Both the position numbers and the translations under genes were made by a program. The notes under the pieces are model-generated. The model saw nothing but the letters and a program-made list of their open reading frames with translations, searched no databases and was not told where the DNA came from. From NCBI GenBank assembly GCA_002402965.1, contig DHGW01000049.1, positions 3,692 to 67,691 of the forward strand: a DNA stretch of 64,000 bases, read 5' to 3'. Source of the stretch: Bacteroidales bacterium UBA4788. GTDB taxonomy: Bacteria > Bacteroidota > Bacteroidia > Bacteroidales > VadinHA17. Shown in pieces: positions 6,089 to 42,502 of this stretch. Positions within the stretch are counted from its first letter, which is position 1, and the number at the start of each line of letters is the position of its first letter.

Positions 6089-7708
6089 ATGCAGAAACTC
6101 TTATTACTTGGAGATGAGGCTATTGCACAGGCTGCCCTGGATGCTGGTCTGAGCGGCATGTATGCCTATCCGGGTACGCCATCAACAGAGATAATGGAGT
6201 ATATCCAGGCCTCCCAACAGGCAGCTTCGGACAGTGTGCACAGGGAGTGGTCTTCAAATGAGAAGACCGCCATGGAAGCTGCACTGGGTATGTCATATGC
6301 CGGCAAGAGGGCCATGGTGGCCATGAAGCATGTAGGGCTGAATGTTGCTGCCGATGCCTTTATCAACTCGGCTGTGACTGGTGTGAATGGAGGCCTGGTG
6401 GTTGTTGCGGCAGATGATCCTTCGATGCACTCTTCTCAGAACGAGCAGGACTCACGTTTTTACGGAAAGTTTGCACTGGTTCCCGTCATGGAGCCGCGAA
6501 ACCAGCAGGAGGCTTATGACATGATCTTTGATGCCTTCGCTTTATCTGAGAAATTCAGGCTGCCGGTCCTGTTCAGGATTACGACGCGCCTGGCTCACTC
6601 AAGGTCAGCAGTAGCCAGAAGGGAGAAGACCATGCAGAATACCCTCTCCCTGCCGGGCAATCCACGTCAGTTTGTACTTCTGCCGGCTATAGCACGGAAG
6701 CAATACAGGGCGCTTACGGGTATATACGAGACACTTCGAACTGATTCAGTGCTGGATGGTCATAACAGGCTCCTCGAGGGCAAAGGCAGAGGTACGGGTA
6801 TCATTGCGTGCGGTATTGCTTTCAACTACCTGATGGAGAACATAGGTGATAACTACGGTGATTATAATATACTTTCAGTCGGGACCTATCCCCTGAACAG
6901 GGATAAGGTGGCAGCCCTGGTCGGCAGGTGTGACAGGGTGCTGGTCCTTGAAGATGGCTATCCCATGATAGAGGAGCATCTGAGGGGTTTGCTAGACAGG
7001 GATGTCACTGTGCTCGGACGCCTGGATGGTACAGTGCCACGTGATGGTGAGCTGAATCCTGCAATCGTGGCGTCAGCCCTGGGCCTGAAATCCACCTGCG
7101 GCAGGGATGTGCCATCGCTGGTACGTCAACGTCCACCATCTTTCTGCAAGGGGTGCGGTCATGCGGATCTCTATTCCGCCCTGGCCGAGGTGATGGCTGA
7201 AGCAGGACCTGGGCGGGTATTCTCCGACATAGGTTGCTATACCCTTGGAGCACTGCCTCCTTACAATATGGTCAACTCCTGTGTTGACATGGGAGCCTCG
7301 GTCACAATGGCAGTAGGCGCTGCCGATGCCGGACTTTTTCCGGCAGTGGCAGTCATTGGCGACTCCACCTTTACCCACTCGGGAATGACCGGGCTGCTCG
7401 ACGCTGTGTTAAAAGACTCTCCCATAACACTCATCATTTCAGACAACTCCACCACCGGTATGACTGGCGGACAGAAGTCGCAGGCTACAGACAGGCTGGA
7501 AAGCATCTGTCTGGGAATCGGGGTTGATCCTGCTCATCTGAAGGTGATTGTGCCACTCAGGAAGAACCATGAGGAGAATAAGTCAGTTATCGGCGCCGAG
7601 CTGAAACATAATGGTCTTTCGGTAATACTTGCGAGGCGGGAGTGCATTCAAACAGCATCACGAAACAAAAAGGCCGAAGCGGCAGAGAAAAACAAATCCG
7701 GGGAATAA
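6089..7708 (+). CDS. iorA: Indolepyruvate:ferredoxin oxidoreductase alpha subunit (TPP-dependent)
   Basis: The N-terminus (LLGDEAIAQAALDAG...YPGTPSTEI) and the FCxGCGH TPP-domain motif are typical of IorA. It is immediately followed by an iorB-like gene. Confidence 0.8.
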   Translation: MQKLLLLGDEAIAQAALDAGLSGMYAYPGTPSTEIMEYIQASQQAASDSVHREWSSNEKTAMEAALGMSYAGKRAMVAMKHVGLNVAADAFINSAVTGVNGGLVVVAADDPSMHSSQNEQDSRFYGKFALVPVMEPRNQQEAYDMIFDAFALSEKFRLPVLFRITTRLAHSRSAVARREKTMQNTLSLPGNPRQFVLLPAIARKQYRALTGIYETLRTDSVLDGHNRLLEGKGRGTGIIACGIAFNYLMENIGDNYGDYNILSVGTYPLNRDKVAALVGRCDRVLVLEDGYPMIEEHLRGLLDRDVTVLGRLDGTVPRDGELNPAIVASALGLKSTCGRDVPSLVRQRPPSFCKGCGHADLYSALAEVMAEAGPGRVFSDIGCYTLGALPPYNMVNSCVDMGASVTMAVGAADAGLFPAVAVIGDSTFTHSGMTGLLDAVLKDSPITLIISDNSTTGMTGGQKSQATDRLESICLGIGVDPAHLKVIVPLRKNHEENKSVIGAELKHNGLSVILARRECIQTASRNKKAEAAEKNKSGE

Positions 7709-7709
7709 C

Positions 7710-8285
7710 ATGAAATGTGATATTATATTGGCAGGTGTAGGCGGACAGGGTATCCTCTCCATAGCCGCCACGATTGGTCTAGCAGCCGTTGAGCAGAATC
7801 TGTTTCTGAAGCAGGCCGAGGTACATGGCATGAGCCAGAGAGGTGGTGACGTGCAGTCACATCTGAGGCTCTCAGACAGGGAGATCTGGTCCGACCTGAT
7901 CCCGCATGGAGGGGCTGATCTGATCATCAGTGTTGAACCGATGGAGGCATTGCGTTACCTCCCGTGGCTCTCCTCAGGGGGCTGGATCGTAACCAGTTCT
8001 GTTCCCTATGTGAACATCCCCGACTACCCTGAGGCTGGCAAGGTGCTTGCGGAGCTTGACAGGGCTGGCAACACAATTGTACTTGATGCGGATGGCATTG
8101 CCAGGGATCTGGGATCGGCAAGATCTGGCAACATGGTAATCCTCGGTGCGGCATCATCATTCATCTCAATGCCGTTCACATCGTTGGAGAATGCCGTCAG
8201 AAAGATGTTCAGCCGCAAGGGTGAGGAGGTTGTGGCTGTCAATCTTAAGGCATTGCATGCCGGCAGGGATGCTACGGGCAGATAA
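7710..8285 (+). CDS. iorB: Indolepyruvate:ferredoxin oxidoreductase beta subunit
   Basis: The N-terminus is MKCDIILAGVGGQGIL... I chose the ATG at 7710, 2 nt after the iorA stop, rather than the longer track ORF starting at 7629, which overlaps iorA. Confidence 0.8.
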   Translation: MKCDIILAGVGGQGILSIAATIGLAAVEQNLFLKQAEVHGMSQRGGDVQSHLRLSDREIWSDLIPHGGADLIISVEPMEALRYLPWLSSGGWIVTSSVPYVNIPDYPEAGKVLAELDRAGNTIVLDADGIARDLGSARSGNMVILGAASSFISMPFTSLENAVRKMFSRKGEEVVAVNLKALHAGRDATGR

Positions 8286-8493
8286 CGGATGCTGGCACAA
8301 TTGCGTCCAAACCAACGACAGCAGACAGTTGACCGGGGGCCAGCTGATTATCCGGGCATCATTTCAGTCACCCGGGTTCCGCGGACAGCAAACAGGCCCC
8401 GGCACACTACCGGGACCTGCCAGCGAGACATCCATACATCACCACCCGACCCCACAGCCATTATGGTCTGCCTGAGACGGTCCCTGTACCGGC

Positions 8494-16223: not shown

Positions 16224-17687
16224 ATGAAAACCAATCGCAGGAATTTCCTTCGTACTGCAGCAGTAGCCGGGGCCGGCACTATTACTGCAGCCTCTGTGGC
16301 CTCATGCTCCCGCCGTGATAAGCCGACTGAAGCCATGCCTTTTGTCAGTGAGGCAGTCAGGGCCAGACATACCCAGAGTTTCAACATGTCAGGTTACGCA
16401 GCACCGCCACTGGAGAAAGTGCGCACAGCTTTTATCGGACTCGGTATGAGGGGTCCTGGTGCCGTGGAGCGTATGGCCCACATCGAGGGTGTGGAGATAG
16501 GCGCACTGTGCGACAAGTATCCCGACAGGGTGGAAAAGGTTCAGGCGATTCTTGCCAAGTTCGGTCTCCCGCGGGCAAAGAGTTTCAGTGGAAGTGAGGA
16601 GGCATGGAAGGGAGTCTGCGATGACCCTGACATTGACCTGGTGTACATCTGCACACCGTGGGAGTGGCATACACCCATGGCGGTCTATGCCATGGAGGCT
16701 GGCAAGCATGTGGCGGTGGAAGTGCCGGCAGCAAAGACGGTTGATGAATGCTGGCAGCTGGTGGAGGTGTCAGAACGCACGAAGCGGCACTGCATGCAGT
16801 TGGAGAACTGTTGTTATGATTTCTTCGAACTGCTGACCCTGAATATGGCCCGGCAGGGGCTCTTCGGTGACATCGTCCACGGAGAAGGGGCATATATTCA
16901 TGACCTGCGCTGGGACTTCACCTATGACAAGAACGGCTATGCCGATATGTGGAGACTGAAAGAGAATGTGCGCAACGGGAATCTCTATCCGACCCACGGT
17001 CTGGGACCGGTATGCCAGGTAATGAATATCAACAGGGGCGACAGGATGGAATACCTTACATCGCTCTCCACAAACGACTTCGCCATGGGTCCGGATCTTG
17101 AGCAGTTAGCCAGGGAGGACCCGTTTTATACTCCTTTTGCAGGAAAGACATACCGTGGAAACATGAACACTACGCTCATCAAGACAAATCTCGGCAGGAG
17201 TATCATGATTCAGCATGACGTCTCCAGTCCGAGACCCTATTCGAGGATTCATCTGATAAGCGGCACCAAGGGATGCGCCAGGAAGTGGCCCTCGCCTGCC
17301 AGGATAGCCCTTGGCCACTCATGGCTGCCGGCAGAGAAAATGGCAGAGATTGAGGCACTGCACACACCGGAGATCGTAAAGAGGGTGGGAGAGATGGCAA
17401 AGGCTATCGGTGGTCATGGCGGTATGGATTTCATAATGGACTGGAGGCTGACCGATTGCCTGCGGAACGGCCTTCCGCTCGACCAGGATGTCTATGATGC
17501 CGCCCTCTGGAGCGTTATAACCCCGCTCAGCGAATGGTCCGTCGCCAACAGGTCAGCTTCGATCGATGTGCCCGACTTTACCTGCGGAGCATGGAAGGCT
17601 AATGCCCCCTTCGATCCGAATCTCCCGGCAGGAGGAAACACAAGGGTTCTTAAGCCGCAGGGAAGTGAATCCCAGCTTGAGGTTTAA
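16224..17687 (+). CDS. TAT-exported Gfo/Idh/MocA-family NAD-dependent oxidoreductase, GH109-like
   Basis: It has a twin-arginine signal (NRRNFLRTAAVAGAG), a Rossmann GxGxxG-like motif (GLGMRG), and a size and architecture typical of glycoside hydrolase family 109-like proteins. Confidence 0.7.
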   Translation: MKTNRRNFLRTAAVAGAGTITAASVASCSRRDKPTEAMPFVSEAVRARHTQSFNMSGYAAPPLEKVRTAFIGLGMRGPGAVERMAHIEGVEIGALCDKYPDRVEKVQAILAKFGLPRAKSFSGSEEAWKGVCDDPDIDLVYICTPWEWHTPMAVYAMEAGKHVAVEVPAAKTVDECWQLVEVSERTKRHCMQLENCCYDFFELLTLNMARQGLFGDIVHGEGAYIHDLRWDFTYDKNGYADMWRLKENVRNGNLYPTHGLGPVCQVMNINRGDRMEYLTSLSTNDFAMGPDLEQLAREDPFYTPFAGKTYRGNMNTTLIKTNLGRSIMIQHDVSSPRPYSRIHLISGTKGCARKWPSPARIALGHSWLPAEKMAEIEALHTPEIVKRVGEMAKAIGGHGGMDFIMDWRLTDCLRNGLPLDQDVYDAALWSVITPLSEWSVANRSASIDVPDFTCGAWKANAPFDPNLPAGGNTRVLKPQGSESQLEV

Positions 17688-17733: not shown

Positions 17734-17750
17734 TATATTTTTTACATTTG
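17734..17750 (+). promoter_or_regulatory. Candidate Bacteroidota sigma-A -7 box (TAcaTTTG) for the hyf-like operon
   Basis: The sequence is TATATTTTTTACATTTG. The TAnnTTTG match at 17743-17750 ends 20 nt before the ATG at 17771. I saw no clear -33 TTTG at the consensus spacing. Confidence 0.35.
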
Positions 17751-17770: not shown

Positions 17771-19765
17771 ATGTTCAGCACCGTTACTTTTTTGATCATT
17801 TTGCTTTTAACGTTGCTGGTCTTCGCGATTCCTAAACCGCTGAAGTACCACTACACGCTGGGGTTGCTGGTTGCAGGAACGGCACTGACCACCGCCTGGA
17901 GCATCAGTGTGCTGACAGGGACGGAAATATTAAAGGAGATTCCCCTGTTCACGCCCGCTGCCGGCAGCCGTTTTGTTCTGGTAATCGATCCCCTGTCTGC
18001 ATTCTTCATTCTTGTAATCAATATTACAGTACTTATCGGGTTCCTCTATGCCAGAGGCTATCTCGCACCATATGGACAGAGGATGAATGCCCTCCGCTTT
18101 TCGATACATTACTTCTCATACCTGTGGCTCTGGCTGTCGATGCTGATGGTGGTAATGATACGCGACGGCCTTCCGTTCCTGATTGTATGGGAGATAATGG
18201 CCCTCTCATCCTTCTTCCTGGTAATCTTTGACGCGGAGGAGAGGAGTATCATGAAGACCGGCATAAGCTACCTGATCCAGATGCACGTCGGGATGTTCTT
18301 CATCCTGGTGGCCTTCCTGCTGCTTCAGAATGAGACCGGAAAGATGAGCTTCGATGCTCTGGGAGAATACTTCTCCGTGCATCGCAACCTGCCGCTCTTT
18401 CTTCTTTTCTTTGCCGGGTTTGCCATCAAGGCCGGTTTTATTCCGCTCCACACATGGCTTCCGGAGGCGCATCCCGCTGCCCCGTCACATGTCTCAGGGG
18501 TGATGTCGGGAGTGATGATCAAGATGGGAATTTACGGTATTTTACGGGTACTGATTCCGATGCAGTCTGACCTGCTGGAGACCGGTGTCATCATCCTTGT
18601 TGTCTCGTTAATCTCAGGTATTATGGGAGTGATGATGGCTATAGTGCAGCATGACCTGAAGAGGCTGCTGGCCTATCACAGCATAGAAAACATTGGCATC
18701 ATCGGCATCGGGTTAGGCCTGGGGGTGATAGGACAGGCCCTCGGTAATCCGGCGCTTGCCCTGCTGGGATTCTCAGGTGGAATCCTGCATATTCTGAATC
18801 ACTCCCTCTTCAAGTCACTGCTCTTTTTCAATGCCGGATCTGTGTATCATGCCACCCACACCCGCAATATGGAGCAGTTGGGAGGAGTGATGAAGAGGAT
18901 GCCGTGGACTGCCATGCTGTTCCTGACAGGTTCACTGGCCATATGCGGTCTGCCTCCCTTTAACGGCTTTATCTCGGAATACCTGATATATATGGGGATG
19001 TTTAACAGCCTCTCCGGAGCGACACTCTTTCACTCCATAATGATAGTGGGATCTGTTGCATCGTTGTCACTCATAGGAGGACTTGCCATCTTCTGCTTTA
19101 CCAAGGCCTTCGGGGTGGTCTTTCTCGGCGAGCCGCGGTCTGAGGCTGCAAGACATGCCGGCGAGGTCAGTGGCTCCATGATCATCCCACAGCTCTTTAC
19201 CGTGGCTCTGATACTGCTCATCGGGTTGGGCTCGCCATTGGTGGTGAAGCCGGTTTTTAACATCGTTACCCGGGCCTGGAACCTGGGCGGCCAGCCAATG
19301 ATCACCGGAGCCTTTACCTCCAACCTGTCACAGATAAGCATTGCCGGAGGAGTTTTTGTCGTCACCCTTGCAGTACTGCTGCTATACCGCAGGTACCACC
19401 TCAGCCGCAGGAACGTTACGGCCGGTCCTACATGGGGGTGCGGCTACACTGCTGTTACTGCCAAACAACAGTATACGGCCACCTCGTTCGCCTATAACTA
19501 CAACCACCTGGCCAAACCGGTGCTGCAAACACGGAAGGAAATTGACGAGATAGGGGAGAGCGAGATTTTTCCGCGGAGGAGGAAATTCGTTTCGCACAGC
19601 GATGACCTCTTCAGGAAGTATCTGATAGACAGGCCTGTGGATTTGGTCGCCGGGTTGCTCAAGAGAATCGCTGTGATGCAGACCGGGCAGATAAGGCATT
19701 ATATTCTCTATGCATTTGTATTCATGCTGCTGGTACTGCTGCTGGCAATGTTCAATATACTGTGA
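17771..19765 (+). CDS. HyfB / NuoL-like antiporter-type membrane subunit
   Basis: 664 aa and polytopic. It carries Mrp/NuoL-M-N family motifs: WEIMAL, AIKAGFIPLHTWLPEAHPAAPSHVS and HSLFKSLLF. Confidence 0.8.
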   Translation: MFSTVTFLIILLLTLLVFAIPKPLKYHYTLGLLVAGTALTTAWSISVLTGTEILKEIPLFTPAAGSRFVLVIDPLSAFFILVINITVLIGFLYARGYLAPYGQRMNALRFSIHYFSYLWLWLSMLMVVMIRDGLPFLIVWEIMALSSFFLVIFDAEERSIMKTGISYLIQMHVGMFFILVAFLLLQNETGKMSFDALGEYFSVHRNLPLFLLFFAGFAIKAGFIPLHTWLPEAHPAAPSHVSGVMSGVMIKMGIYGILRVLIPMQSDLLETGVIILVVSLISGIMGVMMAIVQHDLKRLLAYHSIENIGIIGIGLGLGVIGQALGNPALALLGFSGGILHILNHSLFKSLLFFNAGSVYHATHTRNMEQLGGVMKRMPWTAMLFLTGSLAICGLPPFNGFISEYLIYMGMFNSLSGATLFHSIMIVGSVASLSLIGGLAIFCFTKAFGVVFLGEPRSEAARHAGEVSGSMIIPQLFTVALILLIGLGSPLVVKPVFNIVTRAWNLGGQPMITGAFTSNLSQISIAGGVFVVTLAVLLLYRRYHLSRRNVTAGPTWGCGYTAVTAKQQYTATSFAYNYNHLAKPVLQTRKEIDEIGESEIFPRRRKFVSHSDDLFRKYLIDRPVDLVAGLLKRIAVMQTGQIRHYILYAFVFMLLVLLLAMFNIL

Positions 19766-20679
19766 CTATGGCAGGATTTATACTGATAGTGGTTGCAGCA
19801 TTCTTCTTCCCGGGGATCATCCTCAGGACGAAGAGCCTCGCTTCGGGGCGGAAGGGGCCGGGCATATTCCAGCCGCTGAAGGATATAGTCGTGCTCTTCA
19901 GAAAGGGAAGCGTCTTCAGCAATACCACCGGGATTATATTCCGCATAGCGCCTTCAGTAACGCTGGCAACAGTGTCAGGCGCCATGCTGCTGCTTCCCTT
20001 CGCAGAACAGAAGGCGGTGATCTCCTTCGAGGGCGACTTTATCTTTTTCGCATACCTGCTGGCTCTTGGGAAGTTCTTTACAATCATTGCCGCGCTGGAT
20101 ACGGGCAGCAGCTTTGAAGGTATGGGCGCAAGCCGTGAGGCTCTCTTCTCTATGCTCGTTGAACCGGCATTCTTTGTGCTGCTGGCAACCTTCGCCATGT
20201 TCACGGGGTATACGTCATTCTCCGTGATTTTCAACCACTTTTATGTCACTGGAAATGATTACGTATTGATTTATAGTATTATAGGTGCGTATCTTTTTGT
20301 GCAGATCGCCATGGTTGAAAACAGCCGGCTCCCGGTTGATGACCCGAAGACACACCTGGAGCTGACAATGATCCATGAGGTAATGATACTTGACTACAGC
20401 GGTTTCGACAAGGCTCTCATACACATTGGGACATACCTGAAATTTGCCATTTACGGATCTCTGATCTATAACCTGGTAGTACCGGCGGGGTGGAATATCA
20501 TGTTGCAGATCGGGCTTTTCGTGGCCGTTCAGGGTTTATTTGCCGTAGTGATTGGTTTTACGGAATCGTTCAGGGCAAGGAACAAGATGAACAAGAACCC
20601 GAAATTCATTTTAACCCTGTCGGCGATTGCACTCATAGCATTTATAGTGATACTGATACTGACTGATAAACTTGCCTGA
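19762..20679 (+). CDS. HyfC / HycD / NuoH-like membrane subunit
   Basis: 305 aa and polytopic. The loop ENSRLPVDDPKTHLEL...DYSG matches the NuoH/HycD ExxRxPxD...EL...EYSG pattern. The start is either the GTG at 19762, which overlaps the upstream stop, or the ATG at 19768. Confidence 0.8.
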   Translation: MTMAGFILIVVAAFFFPGIILRTKSLASGRKGPGIFQPLKDIVVLFRKGSVFSNTTGIIFRIAPSVTLATVSGAMLLLPFAEQKAVISFEGDFIFFAYLLALGKFFTIIAALDTGSSFEGMGASREALFSMLVEPAFFVLLATFAMFTGYTSFSVIFNHFYVTGNDYVLIYSIIGAYLFVQIAMVENSRLPVDDPKTHLELTMIHEVMILDYSGFDKALIHIGTYLKFAIYGSLIYNLVVPAGWNIMLQIGLFVAVQGLFAVVIGFTESFRARNKMNKNPKFILTLSAIALIAFIVILILTDKLA

Positions 20680-20686
20680 AAGCATT

Positions 20687-21301
20687 ATGGTAAACTATCT
20701 CATAGTACTGTTTGCAATCACACTGATGTACTTCGCTTCGGCAGAGAGGCTGACAACCTATGTCAGGCTCGTGGCGCTCCAGGGTCTTCTGCTCTGTGGC
20801 ATTGCTGTGTTTGAGCTGAAGGAGGTCAACCTGGCGAATCTGCTCTTCATCGTGGCAGAGACACTGCTCTTCAAAGCAGTGGTGCTGCCTTACCTTCTCA
20901 GCCGGATAATAAGAAAGTCGGGAGTGACGAAGGTGCACCGCCAGGCTGTCCCGGGCTTCTACCTTCTGCTGTTTTCAATTGCCGGGTTGGTTGTAAGCGT
21001 AATCCTTGCAACGATCCTGGTAAATCCATTCATCAACCCGATTTACCTGGCGATTGCTCTTTTCACACTATTCACCGGGCTTTTGCTGATTGTCACTCAT
21101 AAGCTGATCATTTCCCATTTGATCGGTTTCCTGGTTGTGGAAAACGCTGTATTTCTCTTTTCACTGGCGATAGGTAATGAGATGCCGATGCTCATCAACG
21201 TCGGCATCTTACTTGACCTTTTCGTGGGTGTTCTGATACTTGGTTTTTTCGGGTTAAGGCTCAAACCCCACACGAATGAGCTTACGATGTTAAAAGATTA
21301 G
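20687..21301 (+). CDS. HyfE / NuoK-like membrane subunit
   Basis: About 204 aa and polytopic, with a membrane-embedded Glu in VVENAVFLF. I preferred the ATG at 20687 over the TTG at 20672. Confidence 0.7.
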   Translation: MVNYLIVLFAITLMYFASAERLTTYVRLVALQGLLLCGIAVFELKEVNLANLLFIVAETLLFKAVVLPYLLSRIIRKSGVTKVHRQAVPGFYLLLFSIAGLVVSVILATILVNPFINPIYLAIALFTLFTGLLLIVTHKLIISHLIGFLVVENAVFLFSLAIGNEMPMLINVGILLDLFVGVLILGFFGLRLKPHTNELTMLKD

Positions 21302-21303
21302 CG

Positions 21304-22731
21304 ATGATGTTGTTGCTTTTCTTCATACTATCAATAGCGCTGAGTGGCGCGACGCTCCTTTCCCGTGACAGGACCGTCACGAAGGCTATTGCACTGGCCT
21401 TTGCAGCGATGCTCATCGCTGTCACGGTGCATGCCTGGATTAACACCGGCAAAACTGAACTGATATATTTTACTTATGACAGCACGGCTGTACTGCTTCT
21501 TTCGGTGCTGGCGCTGCTAACGATGCCCACAGTTTACCACGGGTTCATCTATACGCGTGACGATGCGGTAAAAAAATATAATATCTACCACTCCGGGCTG
21601 ATCGCGCTTATGACCTTCATGGCAGGAGCCTACCTGGCAAATACAATGACGGTCCTATGGATATTTGTGGAGGCCACCACCCTGGCGGTTGCTGTGCTCA
21701 TCTATCATGACCGGACAGAGATGTCCCTGGAAGCTACATGGAAGTACGTATTCATCTGTTCCACAGGTATTGCACTTGCCTATCTGGGCATACTCTTCCT
21801 CGGGTTCATCAATGGCAGGGGTGACGCACCCAACCTCTCCTTCTCATCATTCGGCCTTGTGATCAGCAACGCCGACCCGATGTACCTGAGGATAGCCTTC
21901 ATATTCGTGCTGGTGGGATTCAGCACAAAGATGGGTCTCTTTCCGATGCATACCGTCACAATAGACGCTCACTCTGTGGCGCCTCCGCCGGTGAGTGCCC
22001 TCATCTCAACCACCCTCATGAACGTCGGATTCCTGGCCATATACAGGGTTTATACACTCTTCTCATCCACCTCAGTGCTGCCCTTCATGAATCATGTGCT
22101 GGTGCTGGCGGGCCTGCTTTCACTTCTCGTCTCCGCGGGCTACATGCTCAAGGCGAAGCACCTGAAGCGCATGCTTGCCTACTCGAGTCTTGAGAATATG
22201 GGCCTGGTGGCCATAGCCCTCGGCACCGGGAAATATGGATATTATGCGGCGTTACTGCTGATCGTGCTGCATTCACTAGCCAAATCAAGCCTGTTTTACC
22301 AGATGGGGCAGCTTTCGAGGATACTGCACACCTTCAGGCTTGACGAGAGTGGCAGGTACATGAAGCTTTACCCGGCTGGAGCAATGGTCCTGCTGACGGG
22401 TATGATCTGCATCCTGGCCATCCCTCCGTCAGGGATGTTCATATCGGAATTCCTGATTTTCAAGGCTATGGTCAGTAACGGCCAGTGGTTCGTTCTGGCG
22501 ACAACCATTATCCTGCTCTGCTTCGTCATTTACGCAATGAGCACGAGGATAATGCATGTCAATTTCTCCTCCCCGCGAAACGGTACTGAGCTGAAGATGC
22601 CCGGCAAAGTAAGTCCCGCCGAGACTGTCAGCCAGTTCGTTCTGCTTACACTGGTAATCATGATCTGCTTTTACCAGCCGCCATTTCTGGTTACCCTGAT
22701 CAATAATAGTATAGCCCTGCTTCCCAGATAG
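21304..22731 (+). CDS. HyfF / NuoN(M)-like antiporter-type membrane subunit
   Basis: 475 aa. Its motifs are FVEATTLAV, FSTKMGLFPMH...DAHSVAPPPVSAL and HSLAKSSLF. Confidence 0.8.
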   Translation: MMLLLFFILSIALSGATLLSRDRTVTKAIALAFAAMLIAVTVHAWINTGKTELIYFTYDSTAVLLLSVLALLTMPTVYHGFIYTRDDAVKKYNIYHSGLIALMTFMAGAYLANTMTVLWIFVEATTLAVAVLIYHDRTEMSLEATWKYVFICSTGIALAYLGILFLGFINGRGDAPNLSFSSFGLVISNADPMYLRIAFIFVLVGFSTKMGLFPMHTVTIDAHSVAPPPVSALISTTLMNVGFLAIYRVYTLFSSTSVLPFMNHVLVLAGLLSLLVSAGYMLKAKHLKRMLAYSSLENMGLVAIALGTGKYGYYAALLLIVLHSLAKSSLFYQMGQLSRILHTFRLDESGRYMKLYPAGAMVLLTGMICILAIPPSGMFISEFLIFKAMVSNGQWFVLATTIILLCFVIYAMSTRIMHVNFSSPRNGTELKMPGKVSPAETVSQFVLLTLVIMICFYQPPFLVTLINNSIALLPR

Positions 22732-22736
22732 AAAAG

Positions 22737-24257
22737 ATGAGCAGCAACTTATATACAGAAGTAAGGAACGGATCAGGTCCGGTTGGGATCAGGGAGATCC
22801 CGGTACTTGATTACGGCCGTTTTTATGAAGAGGTCATAAGTCTGCTTGGCAATGAGCGATACCACTGTCTGACCTACTTTTGTTACCCTGCGGGACCGGT
22901 CCTGAAGTTTATCTGCTGTATCGCCGATGACGGATCCGGGACGATCAGGATACTGAGCCACGAAAAAAGTGATGACGGAGCCCCGCTGCGCTCACTGACA
23001 GAGTCATGTTACGCGATGCATATCTTTGAGCGTGAGATACATGAGAACCATGGCGTGAAGTATGATGGGCATCCCTGGCTGAAGCCGGTGAGGTATCCGC
23101 ACGACAGGGCTGACCGGCAGAATGTAATGGCCAACTATCCCTTTTATGAGATGGAGAGTGAGGAGCTTCACGAGGTGGGGGTGGGGCCCATTCATGCCGG
23201 TGTGATTGAGCCTGGTCACTTCAGATTCATCTGCAACGGAGAGAAGGTGCTGCATCTGGAGATACAGCTTGGTTACCAGCACCGGGGGATTGAAAAGCTC
23301 TTTGCTGATGAAGTTGATGGGCTGCGCCGTGCGATGCTGGCGGAAAATATTGCAGGTGACACAGCTGTTGGTCACGGGCTGGCCTATGCCCAGCTTGCTG
23401 AGTCGCTTGCCGGATACATGCCTTCCGGTTCACTGCAGGCGGAGAGGTGCATCGCACTTGAGCTGGAGCGTATCGCCGTACATATTGGAGATACAGCTGC
23501 ACTCTGTGGCGATGTGGCTTATCAGCTGGGTCAGGTGGCATCCGAGGCGCTGAGGACCGTGGTTATAAATACAACGCAGAGCTGGTGCGGTAACCGGTTC
23601 GGAAAAGGATTGATTCGCCCGGGCGGGACAAATTTTCCTCTCGATGAAGAGATAGCCGGAGAGTTACTCAGGAACCTTGAGGTGGTTGACAGACGGTTCG
23701 GTACCGTGACTGACTGCGTCTACACCCTGCCCAGCGTCCTGGGACGGTTTGAGGAGATAGGCACAGTCACACGTGCCCAGGCAATTGCAATTGGCGCCGT
23801 CGGAATGGTGGCGCGCACCTGCGGGGTGCCGAGGGACACACGTGCAACTCACCCCTTCCAGTATTACAGGCAAATGGCGATCACGCCGGCAATGCAGGAG
23901 AACGGAGATGTGCTGGCGCGGGGGATGCTGAGGGCACTTGAGGTAAAGGAATCGGTGAAGATCATCCGCAGGCTGCTGGATGAGTGGCGGGCAGGAGAAA
24001 AGACAAGCGGACGACCCCGCTATGACCTCAGCTTCACTCCTGATAGTCTGGCGATCTCTGTAACTGAGGGTTGGCGAGGGGAGATCTGTCATGTGGCAGT
24101 CACCGACGGCGACGGCCGACCGGTGCTGTGGAGGATCAAGGACCCTTCAATGCACAACTGGATGGCATTGGCCCTGGCAGTACGCAACCAGGAGATATCT
24201 GACTTCCCGGTATGCAACAAGAGCTTCAATCTTTCATATTGCGGCAATGATTTGTAA
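22737..24257 (+). CDS. NuoC-NuoD fusion / HyfG-HycE-like large subunit lacking the [NiFe] cysteine ligands
   Basis: The N-terminal 30-kDa (NuoC-like) part is fused to a NuoD/large-subunit core (VGPIHAGVIEPGHFRF...LEIQLGYQHRGIEKL). The position of the CGxCxxxH motif reads AGDTAVGH (23352-23375). The C-terminus reads DFPVCNKSFNLSYCGNDL, with no DPCxxC motif. Confidence 0.8.
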   Translation: MSSNLYTEVRNGSGPVGIREIPVLDYGRFYEEVISLLGNERYHCLTYFCYPAGPVLKFICCIADDGSGTIRILSHEKSDDGAPLRSLTESCYAMHIFEREIHENHGVKYDGHPWLKPVRYPHDRADRQNVMANYPFYEMESEELHEVGVGPIHAGVIEPGHFRFICNGEKVLHLEIQLGYQHRGIEKLFADEVDGLRRAMLAENIAGDTAVGHGLAYAQLAESLAGYMPSGSLQAERCIALELERIAVHIGDTAALCGDVAYQLGQVASEALRTVVINTTQSWCGNRFGKGLIRPGGTNFPLDEEIAGELLRNLEVVDRRFGTVTDCVYTLPSVLGRFEEIGTVTRAQAIAIGAVGMVARTCGVPRDTRATHPFQYYRQMAITPAMQENGDVLARGMLRALEVKESVKIIRRLLDEWRAGEKTSGRPRYDLSFTPDSLAISVTEGWRGEICHVAVTDGDGRPVLWRIKDPSMHNWMALALAVRNQEISDFPVCNKSFNLSYCGNDL

Positions 24258-24276
24258 ATAAACTAATTGCGGAGAA

Positions 24277-25029
24277 ATGCTAAAAGAAATCAAGATACTC
24301 GCCGATCACGGAAAACAGTTTGTGCCCGATCTCCGGAATCAGCCTGTCTCTGCCCGTTTCAGGGGAAGGCCGGTAATCTCCGAGGATATTACATCAGAGC
24401 AGGCGGAGAAGGCTGCGGCAATGTGTCCGGCTGGTGCAATTGACAGGCGCAGCGGCGCTACTGACCTTGGCAGGTGCACCTTCTGTAACGAGTGTGCACT
24501 GATGCTGCCCGGGGTGTACCGTTTTACAAATGACTACCGTATTGCTGCAACAAGAAGAGAAAGCCTCGTGGTTAAGCCGGGCCAGTCAGATCAGCTCAGG
24601 ATTGACGAGACCGCAGTAAGAAAAGAGATTCGCAGGCTCTTCAGAAGGTCTCTCAAACTGCGCCAGGTCTCTGCCGGAGGGGACAACTCTTGCGAGATGG
24701 AGCTTGGGGCAGCGGGAAACGTAAACTTTGATATGGGCAGGTACGGTATTGAGTTCGTGGCCTCGCCCCGTCATGCCGACGGCATTGTGATCACCGGACC
24801 GGTATCTGCCAATATGGCTGAAGCTCTTGAAATTTGCTACGACGCTACTCCTTCACCAAAGGTTATAATCCTCGTCGGCACCGATGCCATCAGCGGCGGG
24901 CTCTTTGCCGGCAGCCCTGCGGTGAAGAGGAATTTCATAGAAAATCATCACATTGATCTTTACTTGCCGGGCAACCCGGCTCATCCGCTGACATTTATCA
25001 ACGGGGTGATGGACCTGCTTAAGCTTTGA
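24277..25029 (+). CDS. Fusion of a one-cluster ferredoxin remnant with a NuoB/HycG-like subunit lacking most Fe-S ligands
   Basis: The N-terminal part has C50-P plus C67xxC70xxC73. The complementary cluster positions are S40, A43, A46 and L77. The NuoB-like core is FVASPRHADGIVITGPV, but its ligand positions read GGDNSCE, GTDAISGG and PGNP, where homologs have CxxC, GxCxxxGG and PGCP. Confidence 0.75.
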   Translation: MLKEIKILADHGKQFVPDLRNQPVSARFRGRPVISEDITSEQAEKAAAMCPAGAIDRRSGATDLGRCTFCNECALMLPGVYRFTNDYRIAATRRESLVVKPGQSDQLRIDETAVRKEIRRLFRRSLKLRQVSAGGDNSCEMELGAAGNVNFDMGRYGIEFVASPRHADGIVITGPVSANMAEALEICYDATPSPKVIILVGTDAISGGLFAGSPAVKRNFIENHHIDLYLPGNPAHPLTFINGVMDLLKL

Positions 25030-25143
25030 GTCTGCTGTCCTAAATATACTGATCGCAGGTTGGAATTGGGGAAAATATGGAATCTGCCTTCCTGAACGGG
25101 GCTTTTTACTACCTTAGTTACTTCATTGCAACAACACTGTAAT

Positions 25144-38743: not shown

Positions 38744-41700
38744 TTATTGCTTTACAATTTTCAGGTTTATGCTCCTGGATTCCCGGGTGAGACGGAGAGT
38801 ATATACCCCGGCAGCGAGATGGCGGCAGTTGAAAGGTATCCTGTTATTTCCAGGTGATAGCTCTGCTTCGAATCGCATTACGACCCTTCCTCCAGTATCA
38901 ATGAGCTCGACGGTGGCACGGTCACTGCCCTCATAATCGAGTTCGAGGGTGAAGCTCTCCCTGAATGGGTTGGGATGTACGGTCACTTTCCCTTCTGTTA
39001 TGTCAGTCCCGGTGCCTGACAGCACGAATGAGACCATCGCCGTATCATTGCCTGCATATCCATCTTCGGGAAGGCGGTTGAAGATATAAATCCGGTTCAG
39101 TACGTCTTTCTGAAGGCTTATCTTCTGAGAGAAGGCTACATCAATCGTGTCTCCCGGGTCGATCTTTCTGTAGAAGGTCTCATTGACCAGATCACCTTCA
39201 TTAACCTTATATGCCAGGGGGAAGCTGGTGAGGGCGTTCCTGCCGAAGTTAATCACTCTGCCTTTTACCGTAACGTCTGTAAGCAACGTTGTGACCTGCG
39301 GGGTGTATACCGAATCTATGTGCAGGTCAGCTTCGAGGAAGGCTATATCGGGGAAGGTCACCTGGTCAAGCCATGCTGCATCCATACCTCCGGAAAGAGA
39401 GACATCCTTGGCATAGGCCCATTCAAGCAGGTGAACGCCAGGCTTGAGCACCTTTTTCCTCAGCGCCCACGGTGTGTCACCGGATATCTGCATGTCAACC
39501 ACACTGTCAACCCTGAAGGTGAGCTGGTCATAGATGGGTTCCGAGGAGACCCTGACATAGAAAGAGAGGGTGTCGGTCACAGGGTTATTGACATAAACCG
39601 AAAGGACTGACTCCGTCTTGTCAGGGATAGCAGCGGATCTCGCTGAATTGACATTTTCATATGACGATGAGGAGGTAATTATCCATGGATAGTCACCCTT
39701 CTGTATCCACGGGAAGACGTCGAACCGGTTGTATTCCCACGTCTCCCGTGTCTTACCGGTGCTGAGTGACCACCTGCCCGAGGCCTTATATTGTCCGCAG
39801 ACGAAGCTGACATCATACGGGATCACCCTGCCTGATCCGGTAAGGATTGAAATTGAAGTTTTGAAGTAAATATCCTTTTCCTCGCCAGGCATCAGGGTAT
39901 CGGTAGCCAGTTGCGGCTCCTCCACATTGAGCCAGGTTCCAGCCGGAGTTACAGTCACTGTGCCGCTGGCAGCAGAAGAACCTTCATTTTTGACCCTGAT
40001 CCTCAGATGGAGAGTCTCGCCGGGATCCGGAAGGAAGTTCGAGTTGCCCAGTGAGGAGTCGTCATGCAGAGATGACACTATTTTCAGAACCGGGGCACGG
40101 AGGGTCATATCGATGCCGAACCTGTACTCATTATCGTTGTCTTTCACGATCAGCAGCAGAGATGCAAGTTCGCCATCCTCCACCTTGTCCGAGACGGTGA
40201 AGGTGAACTTCCCTGAGATGGTTCGTGATTCACCCGGCAAGAGAATACCAATGGGTGCCGTATTTGCCCCAACGGTAATCATGCCTGAGGCTACTGTGAT
40301 CTGTGCGGTCAGATCAGCGGTGCTGACCTGGCCGATGTTCTTCAACGTGACCTTCAGGTTAATGGATTCGCCGTAATCGGGAATACCGTCTCCGTTGCCT
40401 GCAGAGTCATCGAACACTATATTCCCCGCTGTCACAAAGGGCTCAGAGACATTTCCGAAGTGGATGGTTTTATAGAACGGCAGCATATTCTGCCCGGTGA
40501 CAATGAGGAGACAGGAGTCCTTCACGCCGGAAGGAATTGTCAGTGAGACATTTCCTGATGGACTGAGGTGGCTGGCGTCCCAGAGCGTATCAAAATCGGA
40601 GAGAGCAGCGTAAGCAAAGGGTTTCGCGAAGAAGCTTAGTGATGTCAGAGCTCCCGGAACCTTGTCAGGCAGGTCTATTTTAAAGGTATCTGGTCTGCCT
40701 ATCACGGGAGAGAGGGAAGGATCACCCAGCAGGATGTAGGTTTCCCAGTAGTATTTTTTTCGTGGACTGGTACTGGCTGATACAGACATGTTACCAGAAA
40801 AGTTAATCTGCCCCATGGTGTGAAACCACTCCCCCGGAGGCTCATAATGTGTATGAAAAAGTCTGTCAAAAGCTCCTGCTCCGGTCGCTTCCCAGGTGAG
40901 ATCAGGTCCGGGTGTTCCAGGCCCCACGGACCAGAAGAAGTCATCGCTCCAGTAGGAGTCGTTTGTGCAGCCGATAAAGCCTATTGCACCCTTTTCCGGG
41001 GTGGCAACCATAGTGGTGCCGAAGCAGGATGCGACATTAATCTGGGCAGTGCGGCATGCGTTGGCAATAATCAACGGGTATTCATTCTTATTAACCAGGT
41101 CTTTGACCATTGAAGATTTGAAAACCGGATCACTGAATCCCGTTGCCTCTCCATGACCGGTATAGTTCAGGAAGCTGAGGCCCTGATTGAAGACGGTCTT
41201 AAGTGAATCATCTTTCAGTGGTGAATCCGGATAGAGCCACCTGATGGCATTGAGTGAGGTGTCCTGTCCGAGGTAGTTGTTGAAGAGGTAAGATATCTGG
41301 CCGTTCATATAAAGCTCGAACCCGGGAGCGTTGCCGGCCGTTGCCAGGGCTCCGGACCAGAAATCGTTTTCCGGTGCGTACGTGAATGTCTCGTAATCAA
41401 TTATCTTCTTTACCATGCCCTTCAGCTGGGTGGTGTCAATTGCAGGCAGCCTTCCGATGAAGAGTTCAGGTATGTAATCGCCCTCTCCGTCAAACTCACC
41501 GTAGTACAGGTCGGAGACATTTAAAGTTCCGCGTGAAGTGGGTATAACGTCCGGACCACCTGCTATAAGCAGGTAGTTTACAGGTACTCCCCGTGCCTGC
41601 AGGTTGAAATAGAGGTCGGATATCCTCTTTTTCAAGTCTTTGTAAACTGTATCTGCCGGTCCCGCTCCCTTGAAGATCACCGTTGTCTCAATGCCCTTCA

Positions 41701-42502
41701 GCATCTTCCACCGGATCAGCGGGGTCAGATGCTTTTTGAAGAGTGAATCAGTCACAACAATCATGTGCACCGGGCGGTCAGCATATCCGGGCACATATGA
41801 ATCCGAAGCATAACCACCCTTGTTGAACTCCAGGTCGACCTCCTCTTCCCCCTTTGTGGCGGAGGGTTCAAACCGTATATTGAGTTTCATTGATGTTATC
41901 AGGTCCACATATCTTCCCTTCGGGTTGTAGAAGGCAGGATAGACTGCGATGTTGGCTATCCTTCGTCCTCTGAAGATTCCTGCATGGGTGATCGTGACAG
42001 TGTCATGCATGAGGATACCATCGGCCTCGTATGCCTTTCTGTCCTTGACAGTTACTTTTTCCTCCGGTGGCTCATTCTTTGTCCTGGCAGGCTGGACCGG
42101 GAAGATCTCGGCATCAGGTGCTCCGTGGTCGGCAAACCTGATTCTTTTTGATGATACGCCGGAGAGAGTGACAATCAGGCTCATTCCGTCAGGCACCTCA
42201 ACCAGCCTGCTGTAAACAGGCAGCTCAGGCTTGCCTGTCTCATGGGTATGGTGGTGTCCCTGCAGCAGTATCCTGAAGTACCGGCCAGAAGGGTCACTGA
42301 CAGTCATCAAACGTGGATCATCGGAACGGTACTGGATATCTGAAGGCTGACGAGATGGCCTGCCGGCGGGAATATCACCCGCAGACCTGCCGGCGTACGC
42401 CTGGGACTCTGCTTCGGGCAGGTTAACCAACATCAAAACCGCCGCCAGCATTATTGCGGTTGCCCACTGATTTACCCTCATAACCTGAATATGCGAAGCC
42501 AA
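38744..42502 (-). CDS. Gingipain-like cysteine peptidase (C25 family) with Ig/CARDB-like repeats and a T9SS C-terminal sorting domain
   Basis: It has a signal peptide, a propeptide-like region, and a C25 core with a candidate catalytic His (NYTGHGE) and Cys (IIANACRTAQ). The C-terminal roughly 80 aa (VTVHPNPFRESFTLEL...YTLRL...LKIVKQ) look like a T9SS type A sorting domain. Confidence 0.8.
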   Translation of the reverse strand: MASHIQVMRVNQWATAIMLAAVLMLVNLPEAESQAYAGRSAGDIPAGRPSRQPSDIQYRSDDPRLMTVSDPSGRYFRILLQGHHHTHETGKPELPVYSRLVEVPDGMSLIVTLSGVSSKRIRFADHGAPDAEIFPVQPARTKNEPPEEKVTVKDRKAYEADGILMHDTVTITHAGIFRGRRIANIAVYPAFYNPKGRYVDLITSMKLNIRFEPSATKGEEEVDLEFNKGGYASDSYVPGYADRPVHMIVVTDSLFKKHLTPLIRWKMLKGIETTVIFKGAGPADTVYKDLKKRISDLYFNLQARGVPVNYLLIAGGPDVIPTSRGTLNVSDLYYGEFDGEGDYIPELFIGRLPAIDTTQLKGMVKKIIDYETFTYAPENDFWSGALATAGNAPGFELYMNGQISYLFNNYLGQDTSLNAIRWLYPDSPLKDDSLKTVFNQGLSFLNYTGHGEATGFSDPVFKSSMVKDLVNKNEYPLIIANACRTAQINVASCFGTTMVATPEKGAIGFIGCTNDSYWSDDFFWSVGPGTPGPDLTWEATGAGAFDRLFHTHYEPPGEWFHTMGQINFSGNMSVSASTSPRKKYYWETYILLGDPSLSPVIGRPDTFKIDLPDKVPGALTSLSFFAKPFAYAALSDFDTLWDASHLSPSGNVSLTIPSGVKDSCLLIVTGQNMLPFYKTIHFGNVSEPFVTAGNIVFDDSAGNGDGIPDYGESINLKVTLKNIGQVSTADLTAQITVASGMITVGANTAPIGILLPGESRTISGKFTFTVSDKVEDGELASLLLIVKDNDNEYRFGIDMTLRAPVLKIVSSLHDDSSLGNSNFLPDPGETLHLRIRVKNEGSSAASGTVTVTPAGTWLNVEEPQLATDTLMPGEEKDIYFKTSISILTGSGRVIPYDVSFVCGQYKASGRWSLSTGKTRETWEYNRFDVFPWIQKGDYPWIITSSSSYENVNSARSAAIPDKTESVLSVYVNNPVTDTLSFYVRVSSEPIYDQLTFRVDSVVDMQISGDTPWALRKKVLKPGVHLLEWAYAKDVSLSGGMDAAWLDQVTFPDIAFLEADLHIDSVYTPQVTTLLTDVTVKGRVINFGRNALTSFPLAYKVNEGDLVNETFYRKIDPGDTIDVAFSQKISLQKDVLNRIYIFNRLPEDGYAGNDTAMVSFVLSGTGTDITEGKVTVHPNPFRESFTLELDYEGSDRATVELIDTGGRVVMRFEAELSPGNNRIPFNCRHLAAGVYTLRLTRESRSINLKIVKQ

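Follow-up and report, generated by a model that had tools for sequence, protein, structure and literature searches.

The 64,000-nt window analysed here, a stretch of contig DHGW01000049.1 of Bacteroidales bacterium UBA4788, carries six tightly packed, co-oriented genes that span positions 17771-25029 in the order ehrA-B-C-D-L-S (all coordinates are positions in the window, and all ehr genes lie on the + strand; Table 1). An earlier note on this DNA had described the product of the fifth gene as a fusion of NuoC with NuoD, not a canonical hydrogenase large subunit and not obviously a canonical NuoD either. We identify this protein, almost certainly, as EhrL, the large subunit of an Ehr (energy-converting or Ech-hydrogenase-related) complex. 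Judged from its ligand positions, the form of the complex found in the Bacteroidota lineage has no cysteine-ligated proximal iron-sulfur (Fe-S) cluster, and we favour, with a probability of roughly 0.55, an explanation in which EhrL belongs to a redox-stripped, complex-I-like Ehr complex that translocates ions.

The four membrane subunits resemble those of Hyf/Hyc-type hydrogenases. EhrA matches Pfam Proton_antipo_M (4.6e-53) and the NCBIfam model 'hydrogenase 4 subunit B' (1.8e-168, below the cut-off of that model), and its top match in the PDB is HycC (1.3e-63). EhrB matches Pfam NADHdh (8.3e-29), with HycD as top PDB match (1.6e-23) and MbhM also significant, while EhrC is recognized by the NCBIfam model 'hydrogenase 4 membrane subunit' (2.2e-12); an alternative ATG start of ehrC at 20687 yields 204 amino acids, as in the public gene call of the contig. 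EhrD matches Proton_antipo_M (7.6e-41) and 'hydrogenase 4 subunit F' (6.1e-71), its top PDB matches being MbsH and MbhH. In the peripheral arm, EhrS matches Pfam Oxidored_q6 (1.2e-19) and Fer4_13, with MbhJ (3.6e-22) and HycG (2.8e-17) as top PDB matches. EhrL matches Complex1_49kDa (1.5e-37) and, weakly, Complex1_30kDa at residues 79-123, which agrees with the fusion described in the earlier note.

Table 1. Features of the ehr operon and its surroundings in the window, followed by features of related loci (L numbers; positions within each locus)
Feature	Position	Strand	Description
ehrA	17771..19765	+	664 aa, HyfB/HycC/NuoL-like antiporter-type subunit with C-terminal ND3-like loop
ehrB	19762..20679	+	305 aa, NuoH/HycD-like subunit with E-channel
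ehrC	20672..21301	+	209 aa from TTG 20672, HyfE-like small membrane subunit
ehrD	21304..22731	+	475 aa, HyfF/NuoN-like antiporter-type subunit
ehrL	22737..24257	+	506 aa large subunit, NuoC-like part (~aa 1-125) fused to NuoD/HycE-like domain
beta1-beta2 loop HAGVIEPGH	23193..23219	+	EhrL aa 153-161, hydrogenase-type, not NuoD HGVLRL
C166	23232..23234	+	The one Cys that all 77 EhrL share, on the strand that follows the beta1-beta2 loop
L1-equivalent segment AGDTAVGH	23352..23375	+	EhrL aa 206-213, beneath HycE CGICGFAH and MbhL CGICSFSH
L2-equivalent segment NLSYCG	24228..24245	+	EhrL aa 498-503, beneath HycE DPCYSC
ehrS	24277..25029	+	250 aa small subunit, N-terminal ferredoxin-like domain fused to NuoB/HycG-like domain
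Sole complete Fe-S ligand set left in the operon	24424..24495	+	EhrS C50 ('CP' Cys, ferredoxin motif 1) with C67, C70 and C73 (CxxCxxC, motif 2)
DNSC in place of CxxC	24682..24693	+	EhrS aa 136-139, first two proximal ligands; first Cys is D136, C139 kept
D203	24883..24885	+	Replaces third proximal Cys of EhrS; GTDAISGG against GACAISGG
N233	24973..24975	+	Replaces fourth proximal Cys of EhrS; PGNPAHP against PGCPPHP
Candidate -7 promoter TACATTTG	17743..17750	+	Matches Bacteroidetes consensus TAnnTTTG, 20 nt 5' of ehrA start
Terminator-like hairpin followed by T run	25086..25110	+	57 nt 3' of ehrS stop codon
GH109 / GFO_IDH_MocA-type oxidoreductase	16224-17687	+	Twin-arginine translocation (TAT) signal; ends 83 nt 5' of ehrA
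2-oxoacid:ferredoxin oxidoreductase, two genes	6089-8300		POR_N/TPP_enzyme_C, then POR gamma; ~10 kb 5' of the ehr operon
C25 gingipain-type peptidase	38744-42502	-	~1250 aa, with Por (type IX) secretion tail
ehrL outside an operon	L013:6405-7907		Prevotellaceae metagenome-assembled genome (MAG)
ehrL outside an operon	L037:9950-11470		Cytophagales MAG
EhrS with four proximal Cys and both ferredoxin motifs	L016:6914-7663		Bacteroidota MAG
Ehr-like operon, order B-C-D-L-S-A	L089:3958-11720		Small subunit cluster-less
Ehr-like operon, order S-A-B-C-D-L	L091:9001-16536		Chloroflexota; small subunit cluster-less
HTH_17-PTS_EIIA_2 gene	L062:2121-2795		5' of ehrA, same strand as the operon
HTH_17-PTS_EIIA_2 gene	L072:4265-4972		5' of ehrA, same strand as the operon
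SulP gene	L010:17968-20280		Adjoins Ehr operon, same strand; unclassified MAG
SulP gene	L012:12393-14063		Adjoins Ehr operon, same strand; Saprospiraceae MAG
SulP gene	L057:10383-12368		Adjoins Ehr operon, same strand; Planctomycetaceae MAG
SulP gene	L078:2570-4366		Adjoins Ehr operon, same strand; Omnitrophota MAG
SulP gene	L082:2351-4255		Adjoins Ehr operon, same strand; Verrucomicrobia MAG

Ehr proteins have been delineated as group-4-like proteins without RxCGxCxxxH and DPCxxC (PMC4378227, PMC6349859, PMC7304191, PMC10284858, PMC5037454) and described with six syntenic genes and an unknown function (PMC4378227, PMC6349859, PMC7304191, PMC10284858, PMC10432482); they were first named in Geobacter, for the cluster GSU0739-45 (PMC7894505). 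The HydDB classifier was trained to exclude them as non-hydrogenases. The operon in the window has the same traits, namely a group-4-like large subunit devoid of the Ni-Fe cysteines and six syntenic genes. The loss of the Ni-Fe motifs that had drawn attention to this protein is thus the hallmark of an already named family, which the earlier note correctly rediscovered. A protein identical to EhrL is present in NCBI, JGI and ENA, and bears the label 'Ni,Fe-hydrogenase III large subunit' at JGI.

A scan of one genome per species retrieved relatives in more than 600 species, and gene order and neighbourhood were examined in the best 80 of these. The 80 loci range over Bacteroidota (48-67% identity), Spirochaetota, Melainabacteria, Planctomycetota, Desulfobacterota, Verrucomicrobiota, Elusimicrobiota and Omnitrophota, the nearest named genome being an uncultured Rikenella MAG. 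The order A(-A2)-B-C-D-L-S is nearly universal among them, often with a second ehrA copy. Geomonas limicola, of the Geobacteraceae, provides a bridge to the named family: its EhrL is 43% identical over the full length, and the seven-gene layout of its locus (L062), A-A-B-C-D-L-S, matches GSU0739-45, orthology with which was judged via the Geomonas limicola sequences. In two loci, L013 and L037, the neighbours of ehrL are housekeeping genes (FKBP isomerase, peroxiredoxin, RimP, EF-G), with no other ehr gene in the 6-10 kb upstream or in the 1.2 kb (L013) or 10 kb (L037) downstream, so that either some lineages have a split operon or EhrL also plays a separate role.

To compare EhrL with proteins of established structure, the sequence was aligned by phmmer to all PDB chains. 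The closest solved relatives are Escherichia coli HycE (2e-32), Pyrococcus furiosus MbhL (2e-29) and Thermus thermophilus Nqo4 (2e-27). HycE numbering was calibrated on seven residues named in the paper on the formate hydrogenlyase (FHL) structure, from which the functional roles of HycE residues were also taken, the PDB chain being numbered +12 relative to that paper (PMC9474812). The claim that both L1 cysteines are lost, with AGDTAVGH at the motif position, is borne out by the alignment beneath the HycE and MbhL motifs, and its coordinates are exact on re-translation: the Ni-Fe ligands C241 and C244 of HycE become A206 and T209. The missing DPCxxC is equally apparent, since the C-terminal end SFNLSYCGNDL aligns with HycE SLDPCYSCTDR, so that HycE D529, C531 and C534 correspond to N498, S500 and G503, and C502 falls between both former L2 ligand positions. 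A scan of the whole protein revealed no CxxC. As had been noted, C493 and C502 form a C-x8-C pair and the chain stops four residues past C502; because this end coincides with a NuoD/MbhL-type C-terminus, EhrL has no extension for cleavage by a maturation protease.

These replacements were followed through a table of 77 EhrL sequences from about ten phyla. The position of HycE C241 is occupied by A in 65 sequences, by C in 8 and by other residues in 4, and that of C244 by T or S in 77/77, while the positions of C531 and C534 are S and G, respectively, without exception. Since they are fixed in homologues from so many phyla, the substitutions are no chance peculiarity of the window. G207, D208, Y501 and D505 are invariant as well, which indicates that the former active site is under constraint and not decaying. 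Position 498, equivalent to the 'strictly conserved' canopy Asp D529 of HycE, is Asn in 70/77 and Asp in 6/77, and altogether 79 EhrL positions are invariant or nearly so. C166 stands where HycE, MbhL and Nqo4 have V or L. The two other cysteines discussed above are conserved in most Bacteroidales and are replaceable across the family (C493 by N or S in 12/77, C502 by S or A in 9/77), hence not obligatory metal ligands; the C-x8-C pair is accordingly an unlikely set of Ni ligands.

Six loci (L042, L045, L046, L048, L059 and L077), from Melainabacteria/Gastranaerophilales plus one unclassified gut MAG, encode an EhrL with CGDS at the L1 position, that is, with the first hydrogenase cysteine kept, and with the L1 His changed to Tyr. 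Their EhrS retains the proximal cluster, and the distal ferredoxin cluster is lost in L042, L045, L048 and L059. The CGDS-type EhrL may represent an intermediate state.

The beta1-beta2 loop of EhrL is of hydrogenase type and reads EPGHFRF where HycE has EPGHFRL; E158 and H153 correspond to HycE E193 and H188, and H153, I157 and E158 are invariant in the 77 sequences. The residues of the HycE proton path (E193, H284, R395, E437 and R478) have (near-)invariant counterparts in E158, H249, R360, E402 and R447. Nqo4 His38 and Tyr87, the quinone ligands of NuoD, align with I157 and G207 and are thus both absent from EhrL, whereas Nqo4 D139 aligns with D259. Nor does EhrL reach the NCBIfam equivalog cut-offs for NuoD (152.8 bits against 360 for NF004739, 123.8 against 459 for TIGR01962). 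The statement that the protein is neither a canonical hydrogenase nor a canonical NuoD therefore stands. By these alignments, EhrL descends from a Hyf/Hyc-type group-4 [NiFe]-hydrogenase large subunit and never gained the quinone His and Tyr of NuoD; with the Ni-Fe ligands replaced by A, T, S and G, it is neither a hydrogenase nor a quinone reductase of known type. An AlphaFold2 monomer model, built from a 21-sequence alignment (mean predicted local distance difference test score, pLDDT, 72.9; predicted template modelling score 0.78), served for a fold search only: Foldseek returned HycE as the best match (7z0s_E, 5.8e-19), followed by E. coli NuoCD (TM-score ~0.7), which again agrees with a NuoC-NuoD fusion.

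The window departs from the Geobacteraceae-type Ehr operons in its small subunit. EhrS was aligned residue by residue to MbhJ, HycG and NuoB/PSST chains, which places D136, C139, D203 and N233 at the ligand positions of the proximal (N2-type) [4Fe-4S] cluster. In addition, ferredoxin motif 1 is without its first three cysteines and motif 2 without its fourth; because 2x[4Fe-4S] ferredoxins are usually cross-ligated, these four positions amount to exactly one cluster. The only complete ligand set left is C50/C67/C70/C73, which, judged by Nqo9 ligation, may be the equivalent of cluster N6b, the one adjoining N2; it would then lie more than 20 Å from the pocket.

In a family table of 66 EhrS sequences, the proximal site is of CCCC type in 38 and of x-x-D-N type (hereafter xxDN) in 28, the window among the latter. 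The CCCC type comprises the non-Bacteroidota loci plus two MAGs labelled Bacteroidota or Bacteroidetes (L016 and L044); the xxDN type comprises the window and 27 other loci, nearly all of them Bacteroidota MAGs. Within the xxDN type the first position is usually D, and the second is C in 20/28 and A, V, T, Y, H or D in the other 8. All 28 have lost the first three cysteines of motif 1 and most the fourth of motif 2, while the set C50/C67/C70/C73 is present in 65/66 EhrS, L078 being the exception. A neighbour-joining tree of EhrL places all 28 xxDN-type sequences in its Bacteroidota part, and the smallest clade that contains them also holds a single Cys-type sequence, that of L016. The EhrS of this Bacteroidota MAG has four proximal cysteines and both ferredoxin motifs, although its EhrL is nested in the cluster-less clade. 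The nesting leaves room for one or several losses, and its cause is several independent losses, gene transfer or a tree artefact.

Searching a library of 50%-identity representatives with EhrS returned further cluster-less patterns, including D-x-E-A and D-x-D-S; the library is rich in fragments and frameshifted entries, mostly without a stated organism, so that motif counts from it are not usable as frequencies. Two of the patterns were traced to more distant Ehr-like operons, L091 and L089. L089 carries D-V-D-S at the former ligand positions and has a more degenerate large subunit, from which even the EPGHFRF loop is gone; a Usp gene and P-II-like DUF190 genes lie on its flanks. The loss of clusters in favour of acidic residues thus appears recurrent, and there may be at least three replacement types, namely Asp/Asp/Asn in Bacteroidota, Asp/Glu/Ala and Asp/Asp/Ser, in a library made mostly of fragments. 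A full-text search that did not extend to the founding papers (Coppi 2005; Marreiros et al. 2013) found no article on Ehr in Bacteroidota or on Fe-S loss in EhrS; within that comparison, the Bacteroidota form with a cluster-less proximal site in EhrS and a single Fe-S site was not found described.

While the peripheral arm has lost redox ligands, the residues known from complex I, MBH and FHL to serve ion movement and the coupling of both arms are kept. EhrA E141, K220, H227, K251, K348, E403 and C557, which represent the Glu of transmembrane helix 5 (TM5), the Lys and His of TM7, the Lys of TM8, the Lys of TM12, the equivalent of HycC E391 and the Cys of the ND3 loop, are retained in 61-63 of 63 family members. 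Among 66 EhrB sequences, all have E126, E134, E186, D194, E200 and E206, while 65 have D193 and F118 and 61 have Y98, and K104 is K or R throughout; Y98, K104, E126, E134 and E186 form the E-channel, D193, D194, E200 and E206 are the acids of the TM5-6 loop, and F118 matches HycD F122, a residue that in FHL touches the Cys of the ND3 loop. EhrD retains the TM5 Glu, TM7 Lys and TM12 Lys, with K209 and K327 invariant and E123 and E297 present in 66/67 family members. In 59/67 EhrD, an Asn (N240 in the window) occupies the place of the central TM8 Lys of MbhH, MbsH and MrpD, which may mean that the two antiporter-like modules do not both work in the usual way. The functional residues of EhrA, EhrB and EhrD are equally well conserved whether the clade is of xxDN or of Cys type.

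Selection was estimated as the ratio of nonsynonymous to synonymous substitution rates (dN/dS) against the nearest relative, whose EhrL is 87% identical. The values, which speak for strong purifying selection, are 0.073 for ehrA, 0.033 for ehrB, 0.049 for ehrC, 0.054 for ehrD, 0.118 for ehrL and 0.092 for ehrS, with 0.030 and 0.057 for two flanking housekeeping genes. The subunits of the peripheral arm are thus mildly less constrained than those of the membrane arm.

Taken together, these data argue for a complex that has kept the coupling hardware of complex I and shed its electron-transfer chain. It is likely that no canonical electron path leads to EhrL; if no proximal cluster is present, there would be no chain of electron carriers to the pocket of the large subunit, and the complex would most probably have no redox turnover. 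The complex would then act as a secondary cation/proton translocator, either by Mrp-like antiport or as a conformational machine driven by a gradient, with the peripheral arm as cap and gate, and the buried carboxylates E158 and D208 of EhrL and D136 and D203 of EhrS may be the proton- or cation-loading sites that feed the E-channel. We lean towards this redox-independent, antiporter-type mechanism because the transport and coupling residues are intact and under selection, while regarding it as a tentative choice at clearly less than even odds. A second mechanism, possible though less probable, is that of a complex-I-type coupling machine without electron transfer at the junction, in which the carboxylates at the former Fe-S ligand positions bind a cation or imitate the charge that the cluster had, and the invariant EhrL pocket (E158, C166, D208, H213, R447, S500, Y501) binds a non-redox ligand or ion. 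The result would be a transporter gated by a ligand or ion, or vectorial chemistry without redox steps, in keeping with the SulP, P-II and EIIA(Ntr) genes beside related operons.

Several points weigh against a redox-stripped translocator. Published accounts call the function of Ehr unknown (PMC7894505, PMC10432482, PMC4378227, PMC6349859, PMC10284858), and no Ehr complex is known to have been studied biochemically. The pocket residues of EhrL are equally invariant in relatives that keep all three Fe-S clusters, so that the ancestral complex may have had a redox-linked function and a cofactor that has escaped recognition might serve the Bacteroidota form. Metals can be ligated by Asp and Asn, and D136/C139/D203/N233 may hold a non-canonical cluster or a mononuclear metal. 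The antiporter model gives no reason for the near-universal retention of one [4Fe-4S] site in EhrS. Mrp antiporters need no NuoH/NuoD/NuoB module, yet Ehr keeps one under selection. Finally, the EhrL model has pLDDT <50 at residues 117-183, 201-206 and 485-506, precisely the region of the pocket with its beta1-beta2 loop, L1 segment and C-terminus, and hence lends no geometry to the proposed loading sites.

Among the alternatives, the one that fares best has the complex still working as a redox-driven pump: the cluster at C50/C67/C70/C73 would take electrons from ferredoxin, D136/C139/D203/N233 would hold a non-cysteinyl Fe-S cluster or another redox metal, and an acceptor would be reduced in the EhrL pocket (E158, C166, D208, H213, Y501). 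This would make sense of the retained cluster, and of pocket residues that are identical in the xxDN and Cys types. Most non-Bacteroidota Ehr keep the full proximal cluster plus one or two ferredoxin clusters, so that the ancestral complex plausibly carried electrons, and Ehr proteins are more abundant in formate-grown Geobacter (PMC7894505). However, the single cysteine left at the proximal site is itself replaced in 8/28 clade members, and EhrL has no quinone ligands. We know of no Fe-S cluster with Asp/Asp/Asn ligation alone, which also counts against such a pump. An association of Ehr with formate dehydrogenase had been proposed (PMC6349859). When all non-Ehr open reading frames within +/-7 kb of the 80 loci were clustered, no formate dehydrogenase or NuoE/F family was recurrent, and no electron-input partner is conserved beside the operon; in the window, Pfam tables covering ~50 kb of the 64 kb hold no hyp, maturation-protease, nickel transporter, formate dehydrogenase or NuoE/F genes. 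On balance we consider redox pumping unlikely.

Only two neighbour families recur at the 80 loci: a regulator with HTH_17 and PTS_EIIA_2 domains (EIIA-Ntr-like) and SulP anion transporters. In 18 non-Bacteroidota loci the regulator gene precedes ehrA on the same strand, mostly directly adjacent to it (L071 with a second copy); outside the xxDN-type Bacteroidota clade the operon thus seems to have a seventh member, with a regulatory role. SulP genes adjoin Ehr operons on the same strand in five loci; the transporter of L057 is fused to a C-terminal P-II domain, and a sixth match, in L023, is on the opposite strand ~1 kb 5' of the operon. Instead of an electron donor, such neighbours suggest the homeostasis of ions or anions and the control of it. 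They also favour another explanation, non-redox vectorial chemistry or ligand-driven transport, in which the pocket might bind a small molecule or ion, for example inorganic carbon or another anion, and couple this to ion flow, much as in complex-I-like modules for CO2 uptake and in DabAB/MpsAB systems. The P-II-like DUF190 genes around the cluster-less L089 operon and the EIIA(Ntr)-like regulators that open 18 operons speak in the same direction. The SulP/P-II association concerns only a small minority of the loci, though, and neither SulP nor HTH-EIIA genes occur in the window (Pfam gene tables, ~50 kb of 64 kb); no zinc or carbonic-anhydrase-like motif was found. Vectorial chemistry of this kind therefore seems rather improbable, slightly more so than a redox pump.

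That EhrL could be a divergent NuoD, in a complex-I-like menaquinone reductase with other quinone-binding residues, is very doubtful. Its top NCBIfam matches are indeed NuoD models, D259 has its counterpart in Nqo4, and Bacteroidota use menaquinone. But the scores fall far below the cut-offs, the His and Tyr positions are I157 and G207, the loop is of hydrogenase type, the membrane subunits are of Hyf and not Nuo type, and there is no N2 cluster to deliver electrons.

We give hardly any credence to a cryptic [NiFe] or other metal hydrogenase using C493, C502 and perhaps C166 as substitute ligands: the first two lie near the former L2 motif and C166 is invariant, but C493 and C502 vary as described above, the proximal cluster and the C-terminal extension are missing, no hyp or maturation-protease genes appear in the Pfam tables of the window, and HydDB excludes Ehr. 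A decaying relic operon without function, as the loss of all recognisable catalytic ligands could suggest, is rejected and effectively refuted by dN/dS values of 0.03-0.12 in six intact reading frames, like those of neighbouring housekeeping genes, and by the (near-)invariant EhrL positions and conserved transport residues. A function outside all the readings set out here takes the remaining probability.

The surroundings of the operon add a few further elements. The -7 motif sits in the 83-nt gap between the preceding gene and ehrA; since the window has 30 copies of TAnnTTTG where chance alone predicts 27, nothing but its position speaks for it, and it is a weak promoter candidate. Scanned for sigma-70 promoters and for terminators, the operon yielded as many sites as shuffled controls did, and with the number of such sites at chance expectation, position alone singles out the terminator-like hairpin. 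The genes flanking the operon, a GH109-like oxidoreductase and an M49 peptidase, are syntenic only in L005, L031 and L087, the closest relatives, so the former is probably not part of the operon. The 2-oxoacid:ferredoxin oxidoreductase upstream is a potential source of reduced ferredoxin and is not syntenic with ehr elsewhere. A large gingipain-type peptidase with a type IX secretion tail, encoded farther downstream (Table 1), is consistent with DNA of Bacteroidales origin.

The question behind these comparisons is a long-standing one for complex I, namely how an event at the NuoB/NuoD/NuoH junction drives long-range ion translocation. A natural member of the superfamily with the coupling hardware but no redox chemistry would be a useful test system; if the redox-stripped reading is true, Ehr would be a natural experiment that separates conformational coupling from redox chemistry, and of real interest to bioenergeticists. 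Ehr operons also occur in hundreds of species from many phyla, including gut and wastewater Bacteroidales. Databases routinely misname them 'Ni,Fe-hydrogenase III' or 'NADH-quinone oxidoreductase', and metabolism reconstructed from metagenomes is distorted as a result.

Among the closest known systems is the Ehr complex of Geobacter sulfurreducens (EhrA-1/A-2/B/C/D/L/S, GSU0739-0745), compared via Geomonas limicola: it has the subunit set and gene order of the window, the same A-G-D-T and N-L-S-Y-C-G replacements, the EPGHFRF loop and the ferredoxin-NuoB-like fusion in EhrS. The Geobacteraceae-type EhrS, however, has four proximal cysteines and two full ferredoxin motifs, hence three clusters, against D/C/D/N and one cluster in the window, and its operon has two ehrA copies and an upstream HTH-EIIA gene where the window has one ehrA and no such gene. 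The E. coli Hyf/Hyc complexes (HycE structure 7Z0S) are the closest solved relatives of EhrL, EhrA, EhrB and EhrS. Hyc shares with the window the NuoC-NuoD fusion, the Glu of the beta1-beta2 loop, the proton relay, the E-channel and the ND3-loop Cys; unlike Hyc/Hyf, the window has no Ni-Fe ligands, proximal cluster, maturation peptide or nearby HycB, FdhF or hyp genes.

The MBH and MBS/MBX complexes of P. furiosus (6CFW, 6U8Y) are likewise hydrogenase-derived, and MbhL, MbhJ, MbhM and MbhH are significant matches to the proteins of the window. MBS/MBX, the type of the sulfane or ferredoxin:NADP oxidoreductase complexes, illustrates that a complex may go on functioning after its large subunit has given up Ni-Fe chemistry, although MbsL is a weaker match to EhrL than HycE is (8e-15 against 2e-32). 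MBS keeps its Fe-S chain, and polysulfide is reportedly reduced at one of its clusters, according to its authors. MBH and MBS carry a full Mrp-type Na+/H+ module; such a multi-subunit module was not found in the window operon, with its four membrane genes, and the proximal cluster is lost, unlike in MBS/MBX. With complex I (NuoCD/NuoB of E. coli and T. thermophilus), the window shares the fold, the NuoD-type C-terminal end and the overall coupling architecture, and differs in having no quinone His/Tyr, no N2 cluster and no NuoA/J/K/I or N-module genes, and in its Hyf-type membrane subunits. Mrp antiporters, lastly, resemble EhrA and EhrD, which have the MrpA/MrpD fold with conserved TM5 Glu, TM7 Lys and TM12 Lys. 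To our knowledge, Mrp has no NuoH-, NuoD- or NuoB-like subunits; Ehr, unlike Mrp, keeps all three under strong selection.

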